Shown here in pieces: positions 9,589 through 64,000 of a DNA stretch of 64,000 bases. The notes beneath the pieces are model-generated. The model had not been told where the DNA came from. It searched no databases and worked only from the letters and a program-made list of their open reading frames with translations. The translations under genes were made by a program, and so were the position numbers. The stretch is from Verrucomicrobiota bacterium (lineage in GTDB: Bacteria; Verrucomicrobiota; Verrucomicrobiia; Verrucomicrobiales; DEV007). The stretch is from positions 96,509 to 160,508 of the forward strand of contig JASFYY010000037.1 of NCBI GenBank assembly GCA_045046875.1, read 5' to 3'. How positions within the stretch are numbered: the first letter of the stretch is position 1; each line of letters starts with the position of its first letter.

Positions 9589-10476
9589 TTAGCCGAGCTC
9601 AAATGTCGTGATCCCGTAAATGTTGCTCCACGGCAGCTGTGAGGCTTTTGCAGAAGACTCACCATAATACATTCGGGCGCAGCCAAATATTTCTTTCATG
9701 TCGCTTTGCTGCGCTAATTTCATGGCTGAGGCGTTTACTTCCGGCACATCGAGAATCAATGGTTGTCCAGCGGCACGATCCCCCAAAGCGGCAAAAAGCT
9801 GGGTAGCCAATTTTTCGTTATCGGCAAACAATGGTCCGATTTTAAAACCTTCAGCGCACTCTCTTACCACCCCGGAAGCCACCAACTTCCCTTCATCCAA
9901 GATCCCCAGCGCCCGGCCGGATTCGGGCTGAATCCATGAACGAAGGAAGCGCTCACGATCGAAACCAAAATGGCGACGATCATAGTCCGCTACCATTGCA
10001 AAAGGCAGCTCACCCAAGTCCACACAACCTTGCGACACTGCTGTTTTTGCTTTCACCCTTCTTCCTACACCTTGCATTCTCAAATTGCGATGAGCAAACA
10101 CAAAGCCACCCTTGGCATACCAATCCTGCATATCAAAAACCCCGTCCATCGCAATCGAGGCACCTGGGGCAAGACGAGCCAACAAGGCGTCCCGGCGATG
10201 AAACCACAAACGCGTTCCGATCCCCTTGCCACGCAAATCCGCGCGTACGATGAAAAAACCCATGAAGCCAAATTGCCCCCCATAGGAAACCACTGAGCCC
10301 GCAGCAACCACTTCCCCATCAAGCTCAACTCCGAGATAACCATTCGGATCTGTTTGCCAAAAAATATCGCCGTCGTGCAACCCTGGATTCCACCCTTCTG
10401 CTCCTGCCCACTTCATAACCTGCTCAAACTCAGCCCTTACCAAGGGGCGTATCTTCAACACATCCAAATCCATCAC
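9589..10476 (-). CDS. GNAT family N-acetyltransferase (two-domain, YitH-like)
   Basis: Acetyl-CoA motif LRGKGIG; EGWNPG, KIGPLFAD and C-terminal GITTFELG. Confidence 0.85.
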   Translation of the reverse strand: MMDLDVLKIRPLVRAEFEQVMKWAGAEGWNPGLHDGDIFWQTDPNGYLGVELDGEVVAAGSVVSYGGQFGFMGFFIVRADLRGKGIGTRLWFHRRDALLARLAPGASIAMDGVFDMQDWYAKGGFVFAHRNLRMQGVGRRVKAKTAVSQGCVDLGELPFAMVADYDRRHFGFDRERFLRSWIQPESGRALGILDEGKLVASGVVRECAEGFKIGPLFADNEKLATQLFAALGDRAAGQPLILDVPEVNASAMKLAQQSDMKEIFGCARMYYGESSAKASQLPWSNIYGITTFELG

Positions 10477-11838
10477 TTATTGTTTTTTCTTAGTTTTACC
10501 AATACGTGGTCGCTGAGCCGGGTTGGGCATCTTATCCAAAACCACTTTCAACCGCTGCCTTGCATTTTTGACATCCCCCGTCACATCCTCGGCGTTCACC
10601 CCCGCTTTTTCCAACTCATCCGCATTCACATCATAAAAACGCCCATCAGCGTAAAGTTTATACTGTTGATCCCGCGCAAACCTCGCTTTAACAAATTTTC
10701 CCCAACGCGGATCATAATGACAAAACACCCAATTCCGCGGATTTCCTTTTTCCCCCAGCACTTGTGGCAAAAAACTACGCCCATCCAATTCGGACTCCCC
10801 ACTGACGTCCACTCCGGCGATCTCTGCAAAAGTTTGATAAATATCCGTAAAATCCACCAAATCCTCACACATCACACCCGATGTCTTTCCTTTCCAATAC
10901 ACGATCAATGGAACATGAGTGCCCGCATTGGGTGTCGTGCCTTTCCCTCCCTGGTAATCCCTGCCATCTACCAACTTCGTGATTATGCTTGGATGGGTAC
11001 CATTGTCGCCGGTAAAAATCACCACCGTATTCTCAAGAACACCAACTTCATCCAATTTGTCCACCAACTGCCCGACGATTTTGTCGGCATACTCGACCAT
11101 TTCCTTAAAGTGACGTTTATTCCTTTTCATCCGATTCTCGGGATTTTTCCACTCAGGTGAATCCGGGGTCGGCACAAAAGGGTCATGGGTGAGCACCATG
11201 GGGTAATAGACCAAAAAAGGTTCATCCTTTTTCCTCTCAATAAAATCCAAAAGGTAGTCCCTAAAAATATCCGGCCCATATTGCCCATTCAGCTTTTGGG
11301 CAGGTTCACCATTGCGCTCGATCAACGGGTCAGCAAAACGCTCTCCTTCTTTTGTCCGCAGCTCAGTCAACTGCCACAGACACCATTCATCAAAACCGAA
11401 TGCCCGGGGTCGGCGATGATTCTTACGCAAGCTCGCCGGATACTGCTGAGGATAAGACAAGCCGTTCAACTGCCACTTGCCAGCAATCGCTGTTGCGTAT
11501 CCTGCCTGCTTCACAAGCTGTGCAAATGTTCGCTCACCGTTACGCAACAAGCCAAACTCTTCGTAATTGCGAAAATTATACTTGCCCGTCATGATCTGCA
11601 CCCTCGATGGCGTGCATAAAGGCGTTGAAAAACAATGCGTGAATCGCACCCCTTCCTTTGCCAAACGATCTAAATTCGGCGTTTGGTAATCCTTACTGCC
11701 ATTGCATCCCAAACATTCATAACCCATATCATCGGCCATGATCAGCACGATGTTCGGTTTGCCTCCGGCAAAAGTCACGCAACACCCTGCCAGCAGGATG
11801 AGGAAAACGATTCCAGTTTTATTCCAATCAATGCCCAT
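10477..11838 (-). CDS. Secreted arylsulfatase (formylglycine-dependent)
   Basis: KPNIVLIMADD, CTPSR, GKWQL, GDNG. Start reassigned to ATG 11838 (signal peptide; 11-bp overlap with upstream gene). Confidence 0.92.
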   Translation of the reverse strand: MGIDWNKTGIVFLILLAGCCVTFAGGKPNIVLIMADDMGYECLGCNGSKDYQTPNLDRLAKEGVRFTHCFSTPLCTPSRVQIMTGKYNFRNYEEFGLLRNGERTFAQLVKQAGYATAIAGKWQLNGLSYPQQYPASLRKNHRRPRAFGFDEWCLWQLTELRTKEGERFADPLIERNGEPAQKLNGQYGPDIFRDYLLDFIERKKDEPFLVYYPMVLTHDPFVPTPDSPEWKNPENRMKRNKRHFKEMVEYADKIVGQLVDKLDEVGVLENTVVIFTGDNGTHPSIITKLVDGRDYQGGKGTTPNAGTHVPLIVYWKGKTSGVMCEDLVDFTDIYQTFAEIAGVDVSGESELDGRSFLPQVLGEKGNPRNWVFCHYDPRWGKFVKARFARDQQYKLYADGRFYDVNADELEKAGVNAEDVTGDVKNARQRLKVVLDKMPNPAQRPRIGKTKKKQ

Positions 11839-12190
11839 TGTCCGACTCCTTGACATTGGGCCAAATGAACAAGCCCCCCCACCCGGCCAGAAACAATAAT
11901 CCCCCAAGTGGAGTGATCGCTCCCAACCACAGAATATTCGTCAGCGACAGAGCATACAAGCTGCCAGAAAAAACCAACACCCCCATCAAAAAACAAAATG
12001 CTACTTTCGACCGGGTCGGTGCCACATAAGCTAGGACCCAAATAGCCAGAGCATGGATCAAATGATAAAACACCGCCGTCTGCCAAGTCGACAACCTATC
12101 ATTCTCCGTCAGAATCCCCTCCAACCCGTGAGCGCCGAAAGCCCCCAGACCGATACCTAAAAGCATCAAAAGCGCTCCCGTTCGTTTCAT
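11828..12190 (-). CDS. DUF423/YgdD family small membrane protein
   Basis: GAFGAHGL, WQTAVFYHLIH, FSGSLY, GAITPLGG; start set at MKRTG. Confidence 0.88.
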   Translation of the reverse strand: MKRTGALLMLLGIGLGAFGAHGLEGILTENDRLSTWQTAVFYHLIHALAIWVLAYVAPTRSKVAFCFLMGVLVFSGSLYALSLTNILWLGAITPLGGLLFLAGWGGLFIWPNVKESDNGH

Positions 12191-12284
12191 GATTGTCCCC
12201 TCATTGTTTTTCATCTTCATCGCGATTTTAATGTTTTTTGAATCATTACGCAACTTTTGTGTGTTAATGTCGTTTCATCCACAG

Positions 12285-52680: not shown

Positions 52681-52975
52681 CCACGTTCTCTAACCGTATT
52701 CCCAGCAGCACCCATCCCTTCCACCACCCAGAATATAATCAATCAAAACCCAGCGCAGCAAAAAAGTTGCATTCCTCTCAAAAAAAACTCCAAGCCAAGC
52801 TCAAATCCCCCTCCGCAGCCCCCCATCCACACAACAACAAAATTGTATGAGGCCTGACCCTTTCCGTTGTTTTGCCTCAACCCCACTTTTCTTCTCAAAA
52901 AATGTAACCTTCTTTCCGTCCCCTTCGTCATCCATTAACGAGCCCGCTTTCCTGCCCTGCTCGTATCCATTCACC

Positions 52976-54682
52976 ATGACTTCTCCAGATTCTCCACCGC
53001 CAGCCCACCCGCAGCTTCCGCATCCCACCTCCAGCGCCCGCATCAGAGCCATCAACCTCTTCATCGTCGGCTTGCTCACCTTCAGCCTATCCTGGTTGAT
53101 CTGGGATCGCACCAACATCAGCCCGTCTTCCCCCAGCTCTGATCCCACTCCATCTACCAAAAAAACGCCTACCTCCCCCGCCTTCCAAACATCCGTAGAT
53201 AAAATCGACCAGGCTTTTGAAAAAAGCTGGCGACAGGCAAAAATCCCCCCCGTTGCGACCGCCTCACCGCTCACCATCGCCCGACGCCTCTCCCTCGCCC
53301 TGACCGGAACCATTCCCTCACTCGAAGAAATCCGCACCCTTGAGCAGCAGCCCGTAGCAGATCAAGTGCAAATTCATCTGTCAAAAATCTTCCAGGATCA
53401 ACGCTGGTCGGACTACGTCTCCGAACGATTTGCCCGCTCATACGTGGGAACCATAGAAGGCCCCTTCCTCGTTTATCGTCGCCGCCGGATGGTTGACTGG
53501 CTCAGTGAGCAGCTATTCGCCAACCGTCACTACGACCAACTGGTGCGGCAACTGATCACCGCAAAAGGCATCTGGACCAGTAAACCCGAAGTCAATTTTG
53601 TCACCGTGACGATTGATCCCAACAACGATGAAAAAGGCCCCAGCGAAGCCAAACTGGCCGCCCGGGTATCACGCGCTTTTTTAGGCATCCGCATCGACTG
53701 CATGGAATGCCACAACGACAAATTCGGCGATCGCTGGAAACAAAGGGACTTCCACCAGCTTGCCGCGTTTTTTGGCGAAGCCGAAATGTCCCTGACCGGC
53801 GTCCGTGACAACCATGACAACACCTACCAATACCGCTTCCGCGGGAAAAAAGAAGCCCAGCCAGTAGATGCCGTTGCCCCCTTCAGTCCCGACCTGATGC
53901 CTGCATCAGGATCACCTCGCCATCGACTCGCCCAGTGGGTCACCCACAAAAAAAACCGCCCCTTTGCCCGCAGCACCGTTAACCGCATCTGGGCCATCCT
54001 GTTCAACAAACCCCTGGTCGAACCCATCGACAACATTCCCCTCGACGGCCCCTGGCCGGAAGCGATGGAGATCCTGACCGATGAACTCATCTCCCACGAT
54101 TTCGACCTGCAACAACTGATCCGCGTCATCACCGCCAGCAAAGCCTTTCAACTCGACTCCCGCTCCAGCGACCCCAACCACCCCATAAGCAAAAAACATG
54201 AAGAACATTGGGCCGCCTTTCCACTCACCCGCATGCGCCCGGAACAAGTAGCACGCTCGGTCATCCAAGCCGCATCCCTCACCACCATCGACGCTCACTC
54301 CCATGTCATCCAACGCCTGATGCGTTTCATCCAACAGTCCAATTTTGTCAAACGCTACGGAGATCCCGGCGAAGATGAGTTTGCCGAGTTGGGCGGCACC
54401 ATCCCCCAACGCCTACTACTGATGAATGGCGAACTGGTTCGTAAACGCACCGGAGAAAACCCCTTCTTGAACGCCAGCACCCGAATTGGCATACTCACCG
54501 CCGACAACCAGAAAGCTGTCGAAATATCCTACCTCTCCATCTTCACCCGCCTTCCAGAAAAAAACGAAAAATCTTACTTCACCGAACTTCTCGCTACCCT
54601 GAAAAACAAAAACCGCTCCCAAGCCATGGAAGATCTATTCTGGGTCCTCATCAATTCCACCGAATTCTCATGGAACCACTAA
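52976..54682 (+). CDS. DUF1549/DUF1553 (PSCyt2/PSD1) domain protein
   Basis: RRLSLALTGTIP, FLGIRIDCMECH, VNRIW, DLFWVLINSTEF; start set at MTSPD. Confidence 0.88.
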   Translation: MTSPDSPPPAHPQLPHPTSSARIRAINLFIVGLLTFSLSWLIWDRTNISPSSPSSDPTPSTKKTPTSPAFQTSVDKIDQAFEKSWRQAKIPPVATASPLTIARRLSLALTGTIPSLEEIRTLEQQPVADQVQIHLSKIFQDQRWSDYVSERFARSYVGTIEGPFLVYRRRRMVDWLSEQLFANRHYDQLVRQLITAKGIWTSKPEVNFVTVTIDPNNDEKGPSEAKLAARVSRAFLGIRIDCMECHNDKFGDRWKQRDFHQLAAFFGEAEMSLTGVRDNHDNTYQYRFRGKKEAQPVDAVAPFSPDLMPASGSPRHRLAQWVTHKKNRPFARSTVNRIWAILFNKPLVEPIDNIPLDGPWPEAMEILTDELISHDFDLQQLIRVITASKAFQLDSRSSDPNHPISKKHEEHWAAFPLTRMRPEQVARSVIQAASLTTIDAHSHVIQRLMRFIQQSNFVKRYGDPGEDEFAELGGTIPQRLLLMNGELVRKRTGENPFLNASTRIGILTADNQKAVEISYLSIFTRLPEKNEKSYFTELLATLKNKNRSQAMEDLFWVLINSTEFSWNH

Positions 54683-54728
54683 TAACGGCCGCGACCCTAA
54701 GTAACTCCCCAGCTAACTTTACAGCACC

Positions 54729-55997
54729 ATGAATAGAAGAAACTTCCTCAACAGCTCCGCCACAGGACTAGCCGCCTTTTCCTGGATGACCCCTATGGCA
54801 GACTTACTCGCGGCCAACACACAAAACCCTCGAAACAAAAAACAAGGCGCCCGGCCAAAATCAGTCATCCTGCTCTGGCTCGCTGGTGGCCCCAGCCAAC
54901 TGGAAACCTTCGACCCCCACCCCGATTCCGCTACCTCCTTCGGCAGTCAAGCCATCTCCACCACGGTCAAAGGCCTGCAACTCGGCGCAGGATTGGAACA
55001 AACGGCCGAAGTCATGCAGGACGTCACCCTACTGCGCTCCGTCATCAGTAAAGAAGGTGATCATGAACGGGCTTCTTACAACATCAAAACCGGCTACAGA
55101 CCTAACCCGACCGTTATCCACCCATCCATAGGCGCGATCCTCTGCCACCAACTCCCCCAGCCTAAAATGGAGATCCCCACCCATATCTCTATCCTGCCCA
55201 ATCAATGGCCCGCCCGTGGCGGTTACATGGGAGCCAAGTTTGACGCCTTTCAAATGGGAGACCCCCGACAAGCCGTGCCCGACGTGAACTCCTACGCCAA
55301 CGAACAACGCCAGACTCAGCGCAAAAAAGGACTCTCCATCGTCGAGAGCACCTTCCTCAAAGGACGCATGGCTCAACTCGATTCACAAAAAACCTTTCAC
55401 CGCCAAAGCATGGCCAACGCCCGCCGCCTAATGGCCTCCGATCAGCTCAAAGCCTTTGACGTCAGCGAAGCGCCCAAAGAAGAACGCCTCGCATACGGTG
55501 ACACCCGCTTCGGACGTGCTTGTTTTGCCGCCGTCCGTCTGGTCGAGGCAGGCGTGCGCTGCATCGAAGTCACCCTCACCGGATGGGATACCCATGTTAA
55601 TAACCACGAAAACCAGGGCAAACGAATCAAAACCCTAGACCCCGCATTCGCCGCCCTGATCAAAGACCTCAAACGCCGGGAATTACTCGATGATACCATC
55701 GTCTTATGCGGTGGGGAATTCGGACGCACCCCCCAGCTCAACGGCGTAGAAGGCCGTGATCACTGGCCAAAAGGATTCAGCATGGCCATCGCCGGCGGTG
55801 GTTTTTCCGGTGGTCGCACTATCGGAGCCACCGACCCTAGCGGAGAAAAAGAAAGCCCCGTCAATCCCGTCCGCGTGCAAGACATCCACGCCACCATCCA
55901 GCACAAAATGGGCCTCGACTTCGAACAAGAACTGATCACCCCCGTCGGCCGCCCCATCGCCCTCAGCGAAGGCAATCTCATTCAAGAACTGTTATAG
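54729..55997 (+). CDS. DUF1501 family protein, Tat-exported
   Basis: MNRRNFL; LWLAGGPSQLETFDP, GWDTH, GEFGRTP, GRDHW. Confidence 0.92.
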   Translation: MNRRNFLNSSATGLAAFSWMTPMADLLAANTQNPRNKKQGARPKSVILLWLAGGPSQLETFDPHPDSATSFGSQAISTTVKGLQLGAGLEQTAEVMQDVTLLRSVISKEGDHERASYNIKTGYRPNPTVIHPSIGAILCHQLPQPKMEIPTHISILPNQWPARGGYMGAKFDAFQMGDPRQAVPDVNSYANEQRQTQRKKGLSIVESTFLKGRMAQLDSQKTFHRQSMANARRLMASDQLKAFDVSEAPKEERLAYGDTRFGRACFAAVRLVEAGVRCIEVTLTGWDTHVNNHENQGKRIKTLDPAFAALIKDLKRRELLDDTIVLCGGEFGRTPQLNGVEGRDHWPKGFSMAIAGGGFSGGRTIGATDPSGEKESPVNPVRVQDIHATIQHKMGLDFEQELITPVGRPIALSEGNLIQELL

Positions 55998-57113: not shown

Positions 57114-58100
57114 ATGAAACTACCTACCTTACTGATCACCGTAGTCGCCGGCTTCAGCCTGAACACGGCCACCTCACTAGGTCAGGACAGCAGCAAACCC
57201 GACCCAGCAACGGTCAAAGAAGCCATCGACATCGTCAAAACCCGACTCGAACGCCAAATGCGACGAGTCTCCGATCTGAGCGCAGAGATCATCCGCCTCG
57301 ATACCCGCATCGAACGGGAAATCGCCTACATCGTAAGTGATCTCAGCCAGGTAGGAGACTCCCGTGACTCCCGCACCGAAGTCGCCAAGCTCAAAGAAAA
57401 AGTTACCGCAGGTCTCAAACGCAGCATCGAAAAATACCAGCGGATGCGCGCGCAAGTGAACCTCGAATTGCAAAACACCCAAGCCGGTCAAACCCGGCAG
57501 GACTTAAAACAAGACCTCAAGCAGTTTGATACGCGCATTGCCAATCGGGTAGATCAAATCGTCAGCATCAGTCAATCCCTCACCACCCAAAAAGACTTCC
57601 AGGCCTACAACGACTACTTGAGGGATACCCGCTACGACCGCACCCACCACAGCGAAATCAATCGCCTGAAAAGCATGGAAAAAACCCAGAACAAACGAGT
57701 CACCCAAGTCACCGACAAACAACGCAAGGACACCATCGATGCGCTCAAACGTAGCATCGCCAGCCTGGAAAACCAAAATAAAGCGCTCGCCTCCCAACTG
57801 AATTCCATCCAATACGCTAAGCAGTCAGACATCATTCAGGAAGATATCGACCGCAACCGCCAAGCCATCATGAACCGGGACGCACAAATCAGCACGCTGC
57901 AAACTTATCAACAGAGCTTCACCATCGAGATCAGCCGGCGAGCTGCCAAAGAAAAAGAAAACCTCATCCGCGACGCCGCCACCTCCCTGAAGCGCGACGT
58001 CGACACTCTCTTCCGCTACTACACCGAGTTCCAAAAAGAGCGCAAACAACAAAACGGCCTGATGCAACAATCACAAGCCCTGCAAGCCCTACTCCCGTAA
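57114..58100 (+). CDS. Secreted coiled-coil protein (paralog B)
   Basis: Shared with paralog A: RLERQ.RVSDL, VGDS.DSRT, TQNKRVT, IQEDI.RN, LKRD.DTLFR. Confidence 0.8.
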   Translation: MKLPTLLITVVAGFSLNTATSLGQDSSKPDPATVKEAIDIVKTRLERQMRRVSDLSAEIIRLDTRIEREIAYIVSDLSQVGDSRDSRTEVAKLKEKVTAGLKRSIEKYQRMRAQVNLELQNTQAGQTRQDLKQDLKQFDTRIANRVDQIVSISQSLTTQKDFQAYNDYLRDTRYDRTHHSEINRLKSMEKTQNKRVTQVTDKQRKDTIDALKRSIASLENQNKALASQLNSIQYAKQSDIIQEDIDRNRQAIMNRDAQISTLQTYQQSFTIEISRRAAKEKENLIRDAATSLKRDVDTLFRYYTEFQKERKQQNGLMQQSQALQALLP

Positions 58101-58139
58101 AAACAAATCCCCAAATTTGCTATTACCATCCCACCACAA

Positions 58140-58445
58140 CGTGGCACGGATCGCTAGCCGAGCTGTAGCCTTCAAGTCGAAGGCAGTGCAATTTGCCGTG
58201 GCGCGGATTGGTAATTTGCCTTCGGGTAGTTTCCTTTGGACGCTACGCTCAACCCTGCTGGTTGCCTGTCTTGCTTCGCTGCGGCTGGCTCTCTCCTTTC
58301 AGTCGAGTGCGGATCCCCAACCCCACGCAAATACCATTACGTCCCACACCTCCTCCTCCCCATCGTGGCGCGGATTGGCAATCCGGCGGATCCCCCAAAC
58401 CACCCCAAACCCCACGCAATACCATTACGTCCCACACCGCCCCTC
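58140..58445 (+). repeat. Composite repeat R1 (core 58213-58317, plus an 'empty' REP copy at about 58364-58395)
   Basis: Core AATTTGCCTTCGGG…CTCCTTTCAGTCGAGTGCGGATCC is near-identical in R2-R4. Confidence 0.92.
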
Positions 58446-58477
58446 ACCTCCCCACTTCATTCTTCAGAATTCCTTGT

Positions 58478-59326
58478 TCAATTATTGCCTTCGAGTCGTA
58501 TTCTCCGACTGTCTCGCAGACTCAGCTCAACATTCCCCACCTCAACCCGATATTTCACCCCTGACCTGTGTTTTTGCTGCGCATTGTCCAAAAGTAGACG
58601 CACCCGCGTCGTTCCACTCGACGAATCTGTCACCGGACTGACAAAAGCGACTTCAGCGCTGCCCGCCTCGTCCCCCACCATCGCTCTCACCGCCACCTTC
58701 TGCCCCACTTTCAGACTTCCTACCATCTCCGCATCCACATAAATCACCAGGATCAACTGATCCAGACGCACCACCGTCATCACCAGATCCGATCCTCCGC
58801 CGACCGCCTCCGCTTCATCACGAAAAGTGCGCTCCACCACCCCATTGATCGGACTGATCAAAGTCCGCCGCTCAATCTGCACCTGGATCTGACCCACCTT
58901 CAAGCCATTCTCCTCCGCCTGCACCTCCGCCTCCATCAGGTCGGCTTCAGTGATCTCCACCTCCGCCTTGGCCCGGAACAACTCATCCGCATTCACCCCG
59001 CCTCCCTCTGAAATGCGTTCCAGTTCCGCCAAACGACGACGCTTGGTGCTCAACCTCGCCCGCGCCGCCTTTTGCTCCGCATCGCTTTTCGCCCGCAGTT
59101 GAGCGATTTTCAGCGAAACCTCCAAAATACGATTATCGAGCTTGGCCAACACCTGCCCTTTTTTTACCGTCTCCCCCTCCTTCACCGCCAGTTCCGCGAT
59201 CACCCCCGCCTCGGGGAAAGTCAAATCCACCTTCTCAACCGGCTCAGTCACCCCGATCACCTCACCACCTACCAAGCTCAACCCGGTCAACCAAAGCACC
59301 CCACAACTAACAATAAAAAACTTCAT
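58478..59326 (-). CDS. RND/ABC efflux periplasmic adaptor (membrane fusion protein), standalone
   Basis: GVIAELAVKEGETVKKGQVLAKLD, ISPINGVV, VSPVTDSSSGT; start set at MKFFIV. Confidence 0.88.
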   Translation of the reverse strand: MKFFIVSCGVLWLTGLSLVGGEVIGVTEPVEKVDLTFPEAGVIAELAVKEGETVKKGQVLAKLDNRILEVSLKIAQLRAKSDAEQKAARARLSTKRRRLAELERISEGGGVNADELFRAKAEVEITEADLMEAEVQAEENGLKVGQIQVQIERRTLISPINGVVERTFRDEAEAVGGGSDLVMTVVRLDQLILVIYVDAEMVGSLKVGQKVAVRAMVGDEAGSAEVAFVSPVTDSSSGTTRVRLLLDNAQQKHRSGVKYRVEVGNVELSLRDSRRIRLEGNN

Positions 59327-59399
59327 ATTCCTAAAAACAATTATCCCCCCCACTGTCCCAAACTGCAATAGGAAAAGCTCTCCCTACCCGCACAATACC

Positions 59400-59765
59400 A
59401 TTTACTTGTCCTCCACAGCCTGTCAGGCGATGGAGGATCCCACACTCAGCCCCTCCCCATCGTGGCATGGATGGCTTGTCCTCCATAGCCCCTAGGGCGA
59501 AGGCGGGGCAATTTGCCTTCGGGTAGCTTCCTTTGGACGCTACGCTCAACCCTGCAGGTTGCCTGCCTTGCTTCGCTGCGGCTGGCTCTCTCCTTTCAGT
59601 CGAGTGCGGATCCCCCAAAACCACCCCAAGACCCGCGCAATGCCATTACGCCCCACATCCACCAAAGCCCACCAGGCGACGGAGAATCATCCATCCCCCC
59701 CTCAAATCCCTTCCCATTCGTGTTGATTCGTGTCCATTGGTGGTTCCCCATCTCAAATCCCCCCC
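59400..59765 (+). repeat. Composite repeat R2 (core 59510-59614)
   Basis: About 250 bp shared with R3; 3' part shared with R4. Confidence 0.92.
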
Positions 59766-59769
59766 TCAT

Positions 59770-59807
59770 TTGACTCCACCTTCACCATGTATTACAATGT
59801 TTTACAT
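59770..59807 (+). promoter_or_regulatory. sigma70 promoter with overlapping palindromic operator for the AbrB-Doc TA; leaderless mRNA likely
   Basis: TTGACT(59770)-17 bp-TACAAT(59793); TGTATTACA and TGTTTTACA palindromes; ATG at 59806 with no RBS. Confidence 0.7.
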
Positions 59808-60036
59808 GACGAAGACTGTTACTAAAATTGGCAATTCCAAAGGCATTATTCTTGATTCAGCCTTGTTAGAGCTTGTCCATTGGAAGGAAGGCGACCAGTT
59901 GTCAGTAACGATGCACGACGGAGGCAGCATCACTTTTACTCCGCTAAAAGCATCTATAAAACCCGAGCAAGCCGCCGCATTGACGGATTCGATTATATCG
60001 AGCAATGATGAATTGTTCAGCAGACTTGCAAAATAA
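59806..60036 (+). CDS. AbrB/MazE-type antitoxin
   Basis: VTKIGNSKGIILD…WKEGDQL swapped-hairpin motif; TAATG overlap with toxin. Confidence 0.9.
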   Translation: MTKTVTKIGNSKGIILDSALLELVHWKEGDQLSVTMHDGGSITFTPLKASIKPEQAAALTDSIISSNDELFSRLAK

Positions 60037-60437
60037 TGCCTGCCCCCAAACACTTGAGTGTCGCTGCAGTCAAACAGATCCACTCAAGAGTGATCCATGC
60101 CCATGGCGGTGATGATGGATTGAGAGACGAAGGCCTACTGGAAAGTGCAATCGCCGCTCCACAGGCTACTTTTGCAGGTGAGGACATCATGGCCGACCAC
60201 ATTGAAATAGCGGCAGCCTACCTTTTCTACTTATGCAACAACCATCCTTTTGTTGATGGAAACAAACGCACCGCACTCGCTGCCTGCCTTGTTTTTCTCG
60301 TTTCCAATGAAGTTTTATCAGAGCAAACCGTATCTGCCTTGGATATTGATACCTGGGAAAGGCTAATCCTCAATGTTGCTTGCTCCAAAATTGACCGTGG
60401 GGAAACGACTAAAAAACTTCGTGACCTGCTAAAATAA
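60036..60437 (+). CDS. doc: Death-on-curing (Doc) family toxin
   Basis: GLRDEGLLESA; HPFVDGNKRTA Doc-type Fic motif. Confidence 0.92.
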   Translation: MPAPKHLSVAAVKQIHSRVIHAHGGDDGLRDEGLLESAIAAPQATFAGEDIMADHIEIAAAYLFYLCNNHPFVDGNKRTALAACLVFLVSNEVLSEQTVSALDIDTWERLILNVACSKIDRGETTKKLRDLLK

Positions 60438-60454
60438 ATCTGCCCCCCTCCCCC

Positions 60455-60735
60455 ACGCAATACCAAATACCATTAGCTTGCCCGCCAAAGTCTGTCAGGC
60501 GACGGAGGATTCCACATCACCCCCCTCCCCATCGTGGCATGGATTGCTTGCCGCGCCATAGCCCCTAGGGCGAAAAGGGGGGCAATTTGCCTTCGGGTAG
60601 TTGTCCTTTGGACGCTACGCTCAACCCTGCAGGTTGCCTGTCTTGCTTCGCTGCGGCTGGCTCTCTCCTTTCAGTCGAGTGTGGATCCCCCCAAACCACC
60701 CCAAGACCCGCGCAATGCCATTACGCCCCACGCCC
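60455..60735 (+). repeat. Composite repeat R3 (core 60584-60689)
   Basis: Direct repeat of R2. Confidence 0.92.
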
Positions 60736-60739
60736 CCGA

Positions 60740-60767
60740 TTGACAAAAACGCCACCTGTGGTAAATT
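60740..60767 (+). promoter_or_regulatory. sigma70 promoter for the RHH-VapC TA; leaderless mRNA likely
   Basis: TTGACA(60740)-16 bp-TAAATT(60762) with extended TGn; ATG at 60773. Confidence 0.62.
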
Positions 60768-60772
60768 ACCCC

Positions 60773-61024
60773 ATGATAAAAGCGCACGTGCAAATACCCG
60801 ACGAACTTTACCGCGCCGCAAAAAAAGTAGCCGCAAGTAAAGAGTGGTCCTTTGCTGAAATAACAAGAAGAGGTCTGGAGTATATGACGAGCGTCAATCA
60901 AGTGCCCGCTACTCAGAGTGATTGGGCGTTGCCACTGGTAAAAGTAAAAGGGGGTAGACCCGTCAGTGAAAAAGCGCTCGAAGAAGCAAAAAACGCAGAG
61001 CGGGATGCCTCATTCCTGATTTGA
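60773..61024 (+). CDS. Ribbon-helix-helix antitoxin (VapB-like)
   Basis: AHVQIPDELYRAAK…SFAEITRRGLE RHH pattern, upstream of a PIN toxin. Confidence 0.82.
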   Translation: MIKAHVQIPDELYRAAKKVAASKEWSFAEITRRGLEYMTSVNQVPATQSDWALPLVKVKGGRPVSEKALEEAKNAERDASFLI

Positions 61025-61046
61025 GAAGCTCCAACAAACAACACCG

Positions 61047-61487
61047 ATGCTGAGCATTGATACCAATATCCTTTTCTATGCCATGGTTGAAAACAGCCAA
61101 TTTCACGAAAGTGCGCGGTATTTTTTGAATCAACATGCCAGAGACACTGAAATGGCGATGTCCGAACTCGTATTGGTAGAATTATACAATCTGCTACGCA
61201 ATGACAAACTGACCGGCAGAAAAACAAGCGCCAGCGAAGCCGCGCAGTGGATACAGCAGATACGCTCGAACCGCGCATGGAGCTTAATCGAAAATGCCCC
61301 CATCATGGAAGAAGTCTGGAACATAGCAGCTCAAGCCCCCTTTGCCCGTCGCCGCATTTTCGACGTCCGCCTCGCTCTGACCCTCCACCATCATGGAGTC
61401 ACCCATTTTGCCACTGCCAATACCAAGGATTTTCAAGGCTGCGGATTCGAAAAAGTTTGGAACCCGTTGAAAAACAAAAATCCCTAA
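61047..61487 (+). CDS. vapC: VapC PIN-domain ribonuclease toxin
   Basis: IDTNIL, E in LVEL, FDVRLA, TANTKDF: conserved acidic PIN residues. Confidence 0.92.
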   Translation: MLSIDTNILFYAMVENSQFHESARYFLNQHARDTEMAMSELVLVELYNLLRNDKLTGRKTSASEAAQWIQQIRSNRAWSLIENAPIMEEVWNIAAQAPFARRRIFDVRLALTLHHHGVTHFATANTKDFQGCGFEKVWNPLKNKNP

Positions 61488-61514
61488 TCCCCAGGAAAAC
61501 TCAAATGGGCAGGA

Positions 61515-61860
61515 CTGCTTGTCCTCCTGTGGCACAAATTACTAGCCGAGCTGTAGCCCAAGGCGAAGGCGGGGCAATTTGCCGTGGCGCGGATTGGCAA
61601 TTTTCCTTCGGGTAGCTTCCTTTGGACGCTACGCTCAACCCTGCAGGTTGCCTGTCTTGCTTCGCTGCGGCTGGCTCTCTCTCCCGCGAATGCGGGATCG
61701 AGTGCGGATCCCTCATACCCCCCCCAAGACCATTACGCCCCACATCCCTCCCTCAAATCCCCTCCCATTCGTGTTGATTAGTGTAAATTTGCCTTCGGAC
61801 AGTAAGCTCCGGCTGTCTCCTTTTAGTCGGCTGTGGTTCCCCATCTCAAATTTCTCATTT
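61515..61860 (+). repeat. Composite repeat R4 (core 61599-61712, plus mini-core 61786-61832)
   Basis: Upstream part matches R1; terminal hairpin replaced by CCCGCGAATGCGGG. Confidence 0.9.
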
Positions 61861-61891
61861 TAAATCTCAATTGATTACGAAGGCCTTGCTT

Positions 61892-62104
61892 TTGACAAAA
61901 ACAACTCATATTCGATAATGGAAATCGCTACGCAGCAGGAGTAATACCATCAAAACATAATTATTATTCCTCAAAATAAGCGTATTTTAATATTTTTTCC
62001 TCAAAAAAACGGATTATCCTACGATTTATCCTTTACTAAAGCTTAAGCGATAATGTAATATTTTTTTCATACATTTCGCTTTTTTTAATAATTTTTCCTC
62101 AAAA
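61892..62104 (+). promoter_or_regulatory. Putative fic promoter plus AT-rich ~30-bp periodic repeat array
   Basis: TTGACA(61892)-16 bp-GATAAT(61914); TTCCTCAAAA at 61967, 61997 and 62095. Confidence 0.5.
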
Positions 62105-62118
62105 ATAAAGGTTTTTCC

Positions 62119-63603
62119 ATGAAGCAACTCGGTTACACATGGCTGATCTCCCACTATAAGCTCAAGGTTCGCCCTCTGTTGCACAGTTCATTCATAGGAA
62201 CACGGCAGGCCATCAGAGAGTGTGCGGACGGCACTTTGGAGGAACACTACGTCAGCCGCTACGACCCCGGAGACGATCCACTCGACCATATTGTGTTCGC
62301 GCTAAAATACGACGAGCTGGATCTTGACATCATGGCTAAGGTTTTTCAGAAGATTTCTCCGGAGAAAGTGGCTGAATTTGTGGCTCGGACTCCGACTGGA
62401 AAGTTTGCTAAGCAAATCGGATTCTGGTTCGAAATGCTGACCAGCCAGGAAGTTCCGCTACAGGGAAAACTTATCGGCAACTACACTCCCTTGCTGGACC
62501 CGCAACGCTATGTCGTTGCTTCAGGGCCGGTTCGAAATCCACGGTGGCGAATATTGAATAACGCTATCGGTGATCGACGTTTCATGCCAATCATTCGACG
62601 AACAAAGGCGATTCGCTCTATTGAGGAAACTGATTGGGAGGGACTCATCTCGGAAACCATAAGCCCTTTCTCCGATGCAGTGCTCAATCGCGCTCTGTCA
62701 TACCTCTATTTCAAGGAAACCAAATCCTCGTTCGCCATAGAACGAGAAGCACTAGGCACAAATAGAACCGAGAAGTTCGTCACCCTCCTTCATCGCGCCG
62801 GAACAGAAAATAAACCACTCAGTGAAGGGTCTCTCACTGAACTTCAGAACGACATCATGGATGCGCGTTACCAAGAGAGTGGTTATCGAACCATTCAGAA
62901 CTACGTCGGCGAAACCACGGTTAACTTCCGCGAGATAATCTATCTGATTGGCTCCCCGCCCGGCTTCCTTCGAGATATTATGGAAGGCTTGGAAGGATAT
63001 TTTACCGCGAGTGCGGGGGTTCACCCCATTTTGCGCGCCGCAGCGATCTCGTTTCCGTTTGTCTTTATTCATCCATTCGAGGATGGCAACGGACGCATCC
63101 ACCGATACATCATCCACGACGTCATGGCCAGAGGCGGAATCGGCGGCAAGGGGCTTGTCATCCCTGTGTCAGCCGAAATCTTGGCAGACATGAGAGCCTA
63201 CGACACCTGTTTGGAACAATTCTCCAAACCTTTACTCTCGGTAGCCGAATACGACCTCAACACCAAAAGTGAGATGACAGTCGAGAACCCAGCTATGATC
63301 GAGGGGTTCTACCGTTACCCGGACGTAACGCAACAGGTTGAGTATCTAGCTAAAATGATAGAACTTGCGATCCAAGAAAGCCTTCCCAATGAGTTCCGCT
63401 TCCTCGAAAATCTCGACCAAGCCCGTCAAACAATACGAGAGATTGTGGACATGCCAGACAGGAAACGGGAATCCCTGCTTATGCGGCTACATCGTAATAA
63501 GGGTAGGCTTGCCAGTAAACGTCGTGAAAGTGAGTTCAAAGAGCTCACAAACGAAGAAATCCAGAAGATTGAGCAAGCGTTTCAAGAAGCGTTCAAAGAT
63601 TAA
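62119..63603 (+). CDS. Fic family protein (large, ~490 aa type)
   Basis: Canonical HPFEDGNGRIHR motif; ETKSSFAIE; C-terminal IVDMPD helical domain. Confidence 0.92.
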   Translation: MKQLGYTWLISHYKLKVRPLLHSSFIGTRQAIRECADGTLEEHYVSRYDPGDDPLDHIVFALKYDELDLDIMAKVFQKISPEKVAEFVARTPTGKFAKQIGFWFEMLTSQEVPLQGKLIGNYTPLLDPQRYVVASGPVRNPRWRILNNAIGDRRFMPIIRRTKAIRSIEETDWEGLISETISPFSDAVLNRALSYLYFKETKSSFAIEREALGTNRTEKFVTLLHRAGTENKPLSEGSLTELQNDIMDARYQESGYRTIQNYVGETTVNFREIIYLIGSPPGFLRDIMEGLEGYFTASAGVHPILRAAAISFPFVFIHPFEDGNGRIHRYIIHDVMARGGIGGKGLVIPVSAEILADMRAYDTCLEQFSKPLLSVAEYDLNTKSEMTVENPAMIEGFYRYPDVTQQVEYLAKMIELAIQESLPNEFRFLENLDQARQTIREIVDMPDRKRESLLMRLHRNKGRLASKRRESEFKELTNEEIQKIEQAFQEAFKD

Positions 63604-63720
63604 ACATCCACCCTCACACTTCACACTTCAAACTTCCCCCTCATCTCATTTTCTCACCCCTAACTAAAACCATCTTCATCCTGCCCGTCCATGCCAGTCC
63701 CCCATCATTTCTTACCTTCC

Positions 63721-63830
63721 TTTGCCTTCGGGTTATTTCCTTTGGACGCTTCGCTCAACCCTTCAGCTTGCCTGTCTTCTCCCGCAGACGCGTGATACGG
63801 CTGGCGGGCTCCTTACCGTCGGTTGCTCTT
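63721..63830 (+). repeat. Diverged core repeat R5
   Basis: TTTGCCTTCGGGT…TCCTTTGGACGCTTCGCTCAACCC…TTGCCTGTCTT…CTCCTTACCGTCG. Confidence 0.85.
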
Positions 63831-63881
63831 CTCTGTATTCCTTCGTAGCTTCTCAAAAACAACTTGTCAAGAATTGTTGCC

Positions 63882-63909
63882 TGACCCCATTTTCGTGACC
63901 CCATTTTCG
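63882..63909 (+). repeat. 14-bp tandem duplication of a REP half-site
   Basis: TGACCCCATTTTCG x2. Confidence 0.85.
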
Positions 63910-63910
63910 G

Positions 63911-63947
63911 GTAATTTGCCTCGTGGCGCGGATTGGCAATCCGCGGA
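63911..63947 (+). repeat. R6: core 5' end plus intact REP palindrome
   Basis: GTAATTTGCCT followed by GTGGCGCGGATTGGCAATCCGCG. Confidence 0.75.
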
Positions 63948-64000
63948 TCGCCCGCTCGCCCGCTCGCCCGCTCGCCCGCTCGCCCGCTCGCCCGCTCGCC
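63948..64000 (+). repeat. 8-bp tandem repeat (TCGCCCGC)n, at least 6.6 copies, running off the window end
   Basis: Read directly from the sequence. Confidence 0.95.

Follow-up and report, generated by a model that had tools for sequence, protein, structure and literature searches.

Repeats and genes at the locus

The window analysed here is a stretch of 64,000 nt at the end of contig C37 (JASFYY010000037.1) of a 5.6-Mb draft genome (G000) of a Verrucomicrobiota bacterium, in which small genes are separated from 58.1 kb onward by copies of an intergenic repeat, hereafter the element. Five copies (R1 to R5), all in + orientation and 94–110 nt each, span positions 58216–63830; repeat finding in the window returned a 128-nt repeat present four times and a 58-nt repeat present five times, and the similarity of the five copies is beyond chance. 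As described below, the element is a discrete DNA insertion composed of a chain of small hairpins whose stems covary across a bacterial family. Copy R2 (59513–59606) serves as the reference. Identity to R2 by BLAST is 96% for R1 (58216–58309, reading TTGCCTTCGGG...TCGAGTG), 96% for R3 (60587–60681), 98% over 86 nt for R4 (61602–61704) and 88% over 58 nt for the diverged R5 (63722–63830), the 3’ end of which is approximate. A short relative of the element, consisting of the 5’ hairpin and one hairpin unit, occupies 61790–61832 of the + strand.

The genes of the array are an HlyD-like gene on the − strand (58478–59368) and, on the + strand, a MazE-like gene (59806–60036) with Doc (60036–60437), an 88-aa open reading frame (ORF; 60758–61024) with a PIN toxin (61047–61487), and a Fic protein of 494 aa (62119–63603). 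Downstream of the repeat, every + strand cassette has a promoter-like site of its own. The cassette order HlyD, Phd/Doc, VapBC, Fic in this genome is replaced by HlyD, Fic, VapBC, Phd/Doc on contig C329 of a sister genome (G005), an order also found in one metagenome contig. The toxin-antitoxin cassettes of the two genomes are 82–83% identical and the flank is 95% identical. The region, marked by the element, is a fast-shuffling toxin-antitoxin island in which gene order differs between genomes that are 95% identical in the flank. The contig ends within a tandem octamer, (GCCCGCTC)n, at 63950–64000, which is the probable cause of the break in the assembly; the array may therefore continue on another contig.

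Architecture of the element

As judged from folds and covariation, the element is built of four to six small hairpins per ~100 nt, arranged one after another. In R2, read on the + strand, it begins with the 5’ hairpin TTGCC-TTCG-GGTAG (59513–59526; CC-GAA-GG on the − strand), which is genus-specific and contains two G.T pairs on the + strand. This is followed at 59529–59545 by TCC-TTT-GGA (TCC-AAA-GGA on −), the near-invariant TTTGGAC and mini-hairpin 1, GC-TAC-GC (GC-GTA-GC on −), and at 59547–59561 by the central hairpin CAACC(C)-TGC-(A)GGTTG (CAACCT-GCA-GGGTTG on −), whose six pairs each show compensatory changes across the family. Mini-hairpin 2, GC-TTC-GC (59570–59576; GC-GAA-GC on −), stands upon a 3-bp stem (59565–59582) and is flanked by TC/TC in the family consensus (GA/GA on −) and by TT/TG in the window copies. 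The terminal hairpin, CTC-TC-CT-TTC-AG-TC-GAG (CTC-GA-CT-GAA-AG-GA-GAG on −), lies at 59588–59604. An earlier note on this DNA, made from the sequence alone, had described the repeat and these six hairpins on the reverse complement, and all of them were found as described. Its further observations on single copies were also borne out: in R5 the loops change from GTA to GAA, GCA to GAA and GAA to GTA, and in R4 the top of the terminal hairpin is swapped for TCCCGC-GAAT-GCGGGA (TCCCGC-ATTC-GCGGGA on −) with the CTC-GA..GA-GAG base retained. R5 also has a longer hairpin in place of mini-hairpin 2.

The TCC-AAA-GGA and CC-GAA-GG hairpins are confined to the genus of the window, and the stretches TTTGGAC, CCTGTCT and CGGCTG are unpaired and invariant. 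On visual inspection, the NTC-TC-hairpin-TC-GRN’ unit found around mini-hairpin 2 recurs in the terminal hairpin of several subfamilies. In metagenome-assembled genomes (MAGs) of Chthoniobacterales and in one subfamily (g3) of the family, the copies are closed by outer stems of 10–13 bp, GGGAGGGCGAGGC...GCCTCGCCCTCCC and TTGTAGGGCA...TGCCCTACAA, that are unrelated to one another. Two other readings of the sequence were discarded. For a possible helix of GGAC and GTCT spanning the central hairpin, inspection by eye gave no compensatory support, and a coding function is contradicted, in our reading, by the position of the variable loop base at the second codon position and by indels that are not multiples of three. 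A fuzzy search with the 5’ hairpin, allowing three mismatches, gave 674 mostly random matches and was too permissive to use.

Covariation and loop conservation

A covariance model was made of a 58-nt conserved block in 22 copies, with only the central hairpin and mini-hairpin 2 given as structure, and 99 matches, 93 of them distinct, were aligned to it. With mini-hairpin 1 added to the structure, 91.9% of 893 cells are paired as compared to 75.3% in shuffles, and 167 cells are changed on both sides as compared to 47.7; the alignment itself had been fitted to the central hairpin and mini-hairpin 2, which favours these two helices. None of 500 shuffles reached either value, and controls in which the structure was slid along the alignment were 25–36% paired. 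When mutual information was calculated with no structure given, the top column pairs were the two of mini-hairpin 2, ahead of those in the central hairpin. In mini-hairpin 2, one pair occurs as GC (45), AT (18) and CG (12) and the other as CG (54), AT (14), TG (8) and TA (7), with variants such as AC..GT, GT..AC, AT..AT and GA..TC covarying. Its 3-bp stem could be parsed in 66 of the 93 copies, the other 27 having either a long-hairpin variant or a diverged tail. Counts among the 66 are 48 G-C and 11 A-T at the outer position of the stem, 39 T.G, 13 T-A, 8 A.G and 6 C-G at the middle one, and 57 C-G at the inner one. Mini-hairpin 1, outside the model, is nearly invariant, with one pair showing two double changes. 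Covariation supports the central hairpin and GC-GAA-GC strongly and GC-GTA-GC weakly. The covariation proposed in the earlier note from the five window copies is almost absent within them, the R4 swap being the sole case, and emerges only across the 93 distinct copies from related genomes.

The loops are conserved as well. Among 90 distinct cores, the first base of the triloop is T in 87, 85 and 70 copies for the three core hairpins, and the last base is C in 74, 84 and 68, where 8–10 of the 90 are gaps at mini-hairpin 2. In all three the middle base varies freely. On the − strand these T-N-C triloops read G-N-A and the TC/TC internal loops read GA/GA. Substitutions across the copies follow the layout of stems and loops and are not scattered at random, as the note had anticipated: stems covary, the middles of loops are free, and the ends of loops are fixed in three hairpins. 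On the − strand the pattern matches the d(GCGNAGC) type of mini-hairpin, a 2-bp stem and a G-N-A loop with both stem pairs covarying, in which the loop ends would form a putative sheared G.A pair. Selection on 2-bp G-N-A mini-hairpins is an unusual and well-supported feature of the element. Since a 2-bp stem with a G-N-A loop has been kept by compensatory changes across dozens of genomes, this is direct evolutionary evidence that such a tiny hairpin is functional. The d(GCGNAGC) hairpin is a classic of nucleic-acid chemistry, and to our knowledge its biological roles are few and mostly anecdotal. A literature search on GCGAAGC in repetitive sequence found no description of such a repeat.

Distribution and genomic context

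About ten full or partial copies were detected in the genome by nhmmer, five in the window array and the others on contigs C87, C50, C146, C68 and C83, and diverged copies were found by BLAST in 5 of 60 relatives. The covariance model matched 52 of 134 genomes of the family, in 12 of its 30 genera and with 1–24 matches per genome, and 2 of 150 other genomes sampled evenly over the phylum. In an exact-pattern scan of one genome per species, 21 of the 23 loci were in Verrucomicrobiota MAGs, namely Verrucomicrobiales, Chthoniobacterales/Terrimicrobiaceae, Chthoniobacter and one labelled Akkermansia; the remaining two loci, one from Streptomyces and one from a Clostridia MAG, roughly equal our estimate of the count expected by chance. 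Within Verrucomicrobiota the element is common in a single family and otherwise sporadic.

Copies outside the window are intergenic, occur in both orientations beside unrelated housekeeping genes and often lie 14–60 nt past a stop codon. The 154 proteins adjoining the 93 copies are mutually unrelated (citrate synthase, L17, URO-D, sulfatases and others) and include the products of four toxin genes, an integron integrase and an IS110 transposase. A neighbour of ~475 aa that seemed to recur was an artefact produced by the cutting of loci at 1500 nt. These proteins gave no sign of an autonomous relative, which would share the ends of the element and encode a TnpA that cleaves them as single-stranded DNA. 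Where a copy lies between co-directional genes, the − strand is sense in 22 cases and the + strand in 10, the ORFs being mechanical calls. In another genome (G003, contig C36), a lone AAA_14/DUF4143 ATPase gene lies in a cassette-like arrangement between copies at 64–134 and 1574–1644, whose upstream flanks are nearly identical to each other.

Insertion sites

Presence and absence of the element could be compared at several loci, chiefly with the sister genome, which is 94–97% identical to G000 in flanking genes. On contig C87 a 369-nt composite containing the element lies between two convergent genes; the sister genome joins the flanks (96–97% identical), and three further relatives (G001, G003 and G004) have merely short intergenic spacers there. 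On contig C50, 125 nt with the element lie 11 nt past a stop codon at a site where the sister genome has 8 nt.

Within the array, R1–R4 are placed in a host palindromic repeat, GTGGCGCGGATTGGCAATCCGCGGATC, which is a separate repeat family and flanks toxin-antitoxin and other small cassettes of the island; GGATTGGCAATCC occurs 38 times in the genome, and in some copies the loop is enlarged by a 33-nt insert. The presumed target within it is GGATTGGCAAT|CCGC. At the R2 and R4 junctions G000 reads GGCAAT|TTGCC...TCGAGTG|CGGATCC; the sister array has the same junction repeats reading GGCAAT|CCGC(A/G)GATCC with nothing between, so that at R2 the same flanks are joined as GGCAAT|CCGCAGATCC and at the place homologous to R4 the host palindrome is intact. 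R1, which follows GGTAAT of the host palindrome, R3 and the C146 copy are preceded by the same GG(C/T)AAT. Four of the five window copies (R1–R4) are thus inserted at one same nucleotide of the host palindrome, and the empty form is seen for R2 and R4. Left arms of the palindrome lie at 58200, 59464, 60536 and 61586, and element-free palindromes of the kind that holds R1–R4 are present at 58367–58393 (GGCGCGGATTGGCAATCCGGCGGATCC) and 63925–63948. Outside R1–R4 and C146 the left flank is A/T-rich (CAATA, TCAT, CTAA, TCCA), and unrelated single-copy loci carry the element with no host repeat nearby. The short relative is likewise filled at 61790–61832 and empty in the homologous stretch 59692–59758 of the window.

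Public metagenome contigs, which show that forms exist and say nothing on their frequency, include one with R2 empty (X4), two in which the R1 region, 58103–58354, is skipped (X1 and X2) and three with a fusion of the R2 and R4 cores (X1, X2 and X5). At the filled and empty junctions compared (C87, C50, R2/R4 and the short relative), neither terminal inverted repeats nor a clear target duplication were found. The element is a discrete DNA insertion, and its clean filled and empty sites should be useful for working out a transposition mechanism. Because the sister junctions lack the element, it is a passenger in the junction repeats and not the shuffling agent of the island.

A second, imperfect palindrome, CGCAAT(A/G)CCATTA(C/G), recurs at 58330–58350, 58415–58436, 59394–59410, 59636–59656, 60459–60480 and 60711–60731, on both sides of cassettes, and is also found at the far end of the C87 composite. 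It could be a real junction or recombination site of the island.

A single-stranded DNA reading and its difficulties

Our preferred reading, held tentatively and with somewhat less than even confidence, is that the element is a small non-coding, non-autonomous mobile DNA of the kind of repetitive extragenic palindromic (REP) sequences and bacterial interspersed mosaic elements (BIMEs), or of palindrome-associated transposable elements (PATEs) derived from IS200/IS605, and that it is likely recognised as folded single-stranded DNA (ssDNA). The hairpins would form while the DNA is single-stranded, for example at a replication fork, and together with the unpaired TTTGGAC, CCTGTCT and CGGCTG could present a recognition fold to an excising and inserting enzyme, perhaps of a HUH/Y1 type as in IS200/IS605 or REP systems, with the − strand as the probable folded form. 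Hairpin recognition in ssDNA fits an inserted DNA that has no terminal inverted repeats. Most of what is known of structured intergenic repeats (REP, BIME, BOX, PATE) comes from Proteobacteria and Firmicutes, and on this reading the element would be a new structured, non-autonomous mobile repeat of that kind in Verrucomicrobiota.

The assignment to the − strand is suggested by DNA nearest-neighbour energies, which favour it in 73 of 92 copies, by the G-N-A loops and GA/GA internal loops, and by a T.G pair that closes the central loop on this strand in the window copies. The d(GCGNAGC) mini-hairpins are extraordinarily stable, d(GCGAAGC) having a melting temperature of 76.5 °C, and such motifs are found in ssDNA priming signals (PMC13037366). 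The earlier note had proposed a strand-specific ssDNA fold read by a protein; the non-random substitutions and the insertion with no terminal inverted repeats agree with hairpin recognition of that kind. The ssDNA form of the fold and its reading by a protein are conjectural, and the evidence on the strand conflicts.

Several observations weigh against this reading. In 39 of the 66 parsed stems below mini-hairpin 2, a pair that is T.G on the + strand would be A.C on the −, and the 5’ hairpin has, on the + strand, its two G.T pairs and a loop of the cUUCGg type. Minimum free energies are barely below those of dinucleotide shuffles (mean z −0.3 to −0.6, either strand, either parameter set), as calculated with standard energy rules that do not model GNA mini-hairpins. 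The long outer stem of the Chthoniobacterales and g3 copies resembles that of a compact structured RNA. The conserved block is central and the ends differ between subfamilies, an arrangement unusual for transposon ends. A deletion in the sister genome is possible at the C50 site, as the 8 nt kept there resemble the element. The ssDNA fold of the − strand is the leading reading and is not established.

The candidate enzyme also fits poorly. Fifteen Y1_Tnp matches were found in the genome, mostly from a multi-copy 353-aa gene with sub-threshold similarity to REP-associated tyrosine transposases (RAYTs); the gene lies at 1453–2514 of locus L124 and in ~15 other places, with an N-terminal Y1_Tnp-like domain and paralogues that are 67–96% identical. 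Its protein scores 43.8 bits against an NCBIfam family cut-off of 80. No copy of the element was present in the flanks of the eight RAYT-like loci fetched. Of the 134 genomes of the family, 84 have the gene, in numbers of up to 20 matches each, and it is missing at an E value of 1e-20 from 12 of the 52 element-bearing genomes, including one (G034) with nine copies of the element. Co-occurrence is weak (40 of 52 element-bearing genomes versus 44 of 82 others, in related genomes that are not independent). With no adjacency and weak co-occurrence, the RAYT-like gene was rejected as the demonstrated partner, and a link between its protein and the element is a guess.

Comparison with known mobile repeats

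Like REP/BIME sequences, which are served by RAYTs (Y1 HUH enzymes), the element is a short, hairpin-forming intergenic repeat that occurs in both orientations, often near the 3’ ends of genes and in mosaics with other small repeats, in a genome that holds a multi-copy gene with weak RAYT similarity. It differs in being a ~100-nt chain of four to six hairpins as opposed to a single palindrome of 20–40 nt, and in numbering from a few to 24 copies per genome as opposed to hundreds, with none flanking the RAYT-like genes at the eight loci; the GTAG of REP sequences occurs only in the genus of the window (GGGTAGC) and is unconserved in the 93-copy alignment. With IS200/IS605 ends and PATEs the element shares the lack of terminal inverted repeats and of a clear target duplication, hairpins near both ends, and reuse of the site beside the left end (...AAT|TTGCC). 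It departs from them in that no tnpA/tnpB element with these ends was found and in that its conserved part is internal, and the distances from ends to hairpins are presumably unlike those of IS608.

The priming signals and origins that contain d(GCGNAGC) hairpins (the phage G4 origin and ssiA, CCGAAGG; PMC13037366) correspond to the GCGAAGC, GCGTAGC and CCGAAGG of the − strand, with the G and A ends of the loop fixed and the middle free. In the element, by contrast, the motif occurs three to four times per copy, covaries and belongs to a dispersed chromosomal repeat, and no priming function is indicated. The pneumococcal BOX repeat offers a parallel in the varied combination of its modules, here seen as short and long forms and replaced hairpin tops, but its sequences are unrelated and its loop signature differs.

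Alternative explanations

The fold may instead be that of an RNA: a co-transcribed element, small RNA or ribozyme-like motif acting as a 3’ untranslated region stabiliser, processing site or regulator, which spread secondarily as a repeat. A + strand RNA had been offered as an alternative in the earlier note on account of the cUUCGg-type loop, and this loop and the G.U pairs of the 5’ hairpin do lie on that strand. The T.G (G.U) majority in the stem below mini-hairpin 2, GAAA or GCAA loops on the + strand in some long variants of mini-hairpin 2, the many copies 14–60 nt past a stop codon, and the outer stem of 10–13 bp that closes a multi-branch core with conserved junctions in the Chthoniobacterales and g3 copies would all be consistent with RNA. 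Against these stand the occurrence of both orientations directly past stop codons and the lack of transcription signals: no conserved sequence was found in the upstream flanks in the alignment, no promoter-like site was found before the window copies, and no terminator-like site was found at R1–R4, one overlapping the diverged R5. For these reasons a small RNA gene with its own promoter and an intrinsic terminator were both rejected. Rfam gave no match in the window at the gathering score, and at E values up to 10 only chance-level matches in 58000–64000 and none on the repeats. Triloop hairpins with 2-bp stems are weak in RNA, where r(GCGAAAGC) melts at 39 °C versus 76.5 °C for the DNA form (PMC13037366). 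Core stems contain about equal numbers of G.T and A.C pairs (15 versus 21), which is neutral as to strand, whereas an RNA made from one strand should be dominated by G.U. We regard an RNA function as rather unlikely.

It is unlikely, if worth stating, that the element represents an undescribed class of ssDNA-mobilised element, a chain of covarying GNA mini-hairpins and tandem G.A motifs moved by an enzyme not so far recognised, possibly of the RAYT-like 353-aa family, or else that the closed-stem forms are a new structured RNA or self-cleaving motif turned repeat. If the former were true, this would be the first natural repeat family with the d(GCGNAGC) mini-hairpin under selection.

An architectural repeat of the BIME or BOX type, acting in duplex or cruciform DNA by binding nucleoid proteins, gyrase or the like, could be gained and lost by recombination and replication slippage with no dedicated transposase. 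The intergenic mosaics of the host palindrome, the CGCAAT(A/G)CCATTA module and short and long hairpin elements have this character; the near-equal frequency of G.T and A.C in stems is expected if both strands or the duplex matter, and the fused R2 and R4 cores in metagenome contigs are what homologous recombination would give. Recombination and slippage do not account well for four window copies that share one insertion point, to the nucleotide, in the host palindrome, with empty forms for R2 and R4, nor for the element at single-copy loci with no host repeat nearby, and the fixed loop ends (T..C, or G..A) have a known structural meaning for a single strand only. We consider this explanation improbable.

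The last alternative is a non-canonical attC-like site, the − (bottom) strand of which would fold into a form on which a tyrosine recombinase acts to shuffle the toxin-antitoxin cassettes. As with integron attC sites, whose function needs a strand-specific ssDNA fold, five co-oriented copies lie at the boundaries of small cassettes with their own promoter-like sites; toxin-antitoxin cassettes are typical of chromosomal integrons, and cassette order varies between the two genomes and among metagenome contigs. The genome has two integron integrase matches above the TIGR02249 cut-off, both on contigs other than that of the window (C117 and C27), the window contig ending in the array. The element lacks the R and L boxes and the single long imperfect hairpin with extrahelical bases of an attC site. 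The end boxes RYYYAAC/GTTRRRY are represented solely by a GCTCAAC...GTTGCCT pair 8 nt apart inside the central hairpin, the ends reading TTGCC... and ...TCGAGTG. Of the 93 copies, 91 are solitary or beside ordinary genes with no recombinase, and most lie outside arrays. Shuffling does not need the element, because the sister genome has the same cassettes and junction repeats without it. A canonical attC site was rejected on the missing boxes and on the different, classical-looking attC of the C117 integron, and even the non-canonical form is very improbable.

Integrases and other observations

The integron integrase on C117 lies at 10247–12200 of locus L046 (C117:9000–21275) and is interrupted by one TAG; a 211-aa ORF and an attC that is, in our reading, classical-looking and unlike the element follow it in the same orientation. 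The second integrase is a fragment at the end of C27. In one genome (G100, contig C18) an intact integron integrase (332 bits) has a copy of the element 143 nt downstream, similarly oriented and followed by no cassette array, and at the end of contig C146 in G000 a recombinase fragment lies ~45 nt upstream of a truncated copy. Both arrangements would suit an attC-like role.

In line with the taxonomy of the exact-pattern matches, two neighbouring genes of a combination typical of Planctomycetes and Verrucomicrobia, PSCyt2/PSD1 (DUF1549/DUF1553) and DUF1501, lie elsewhere in the window, at 52847–55997.

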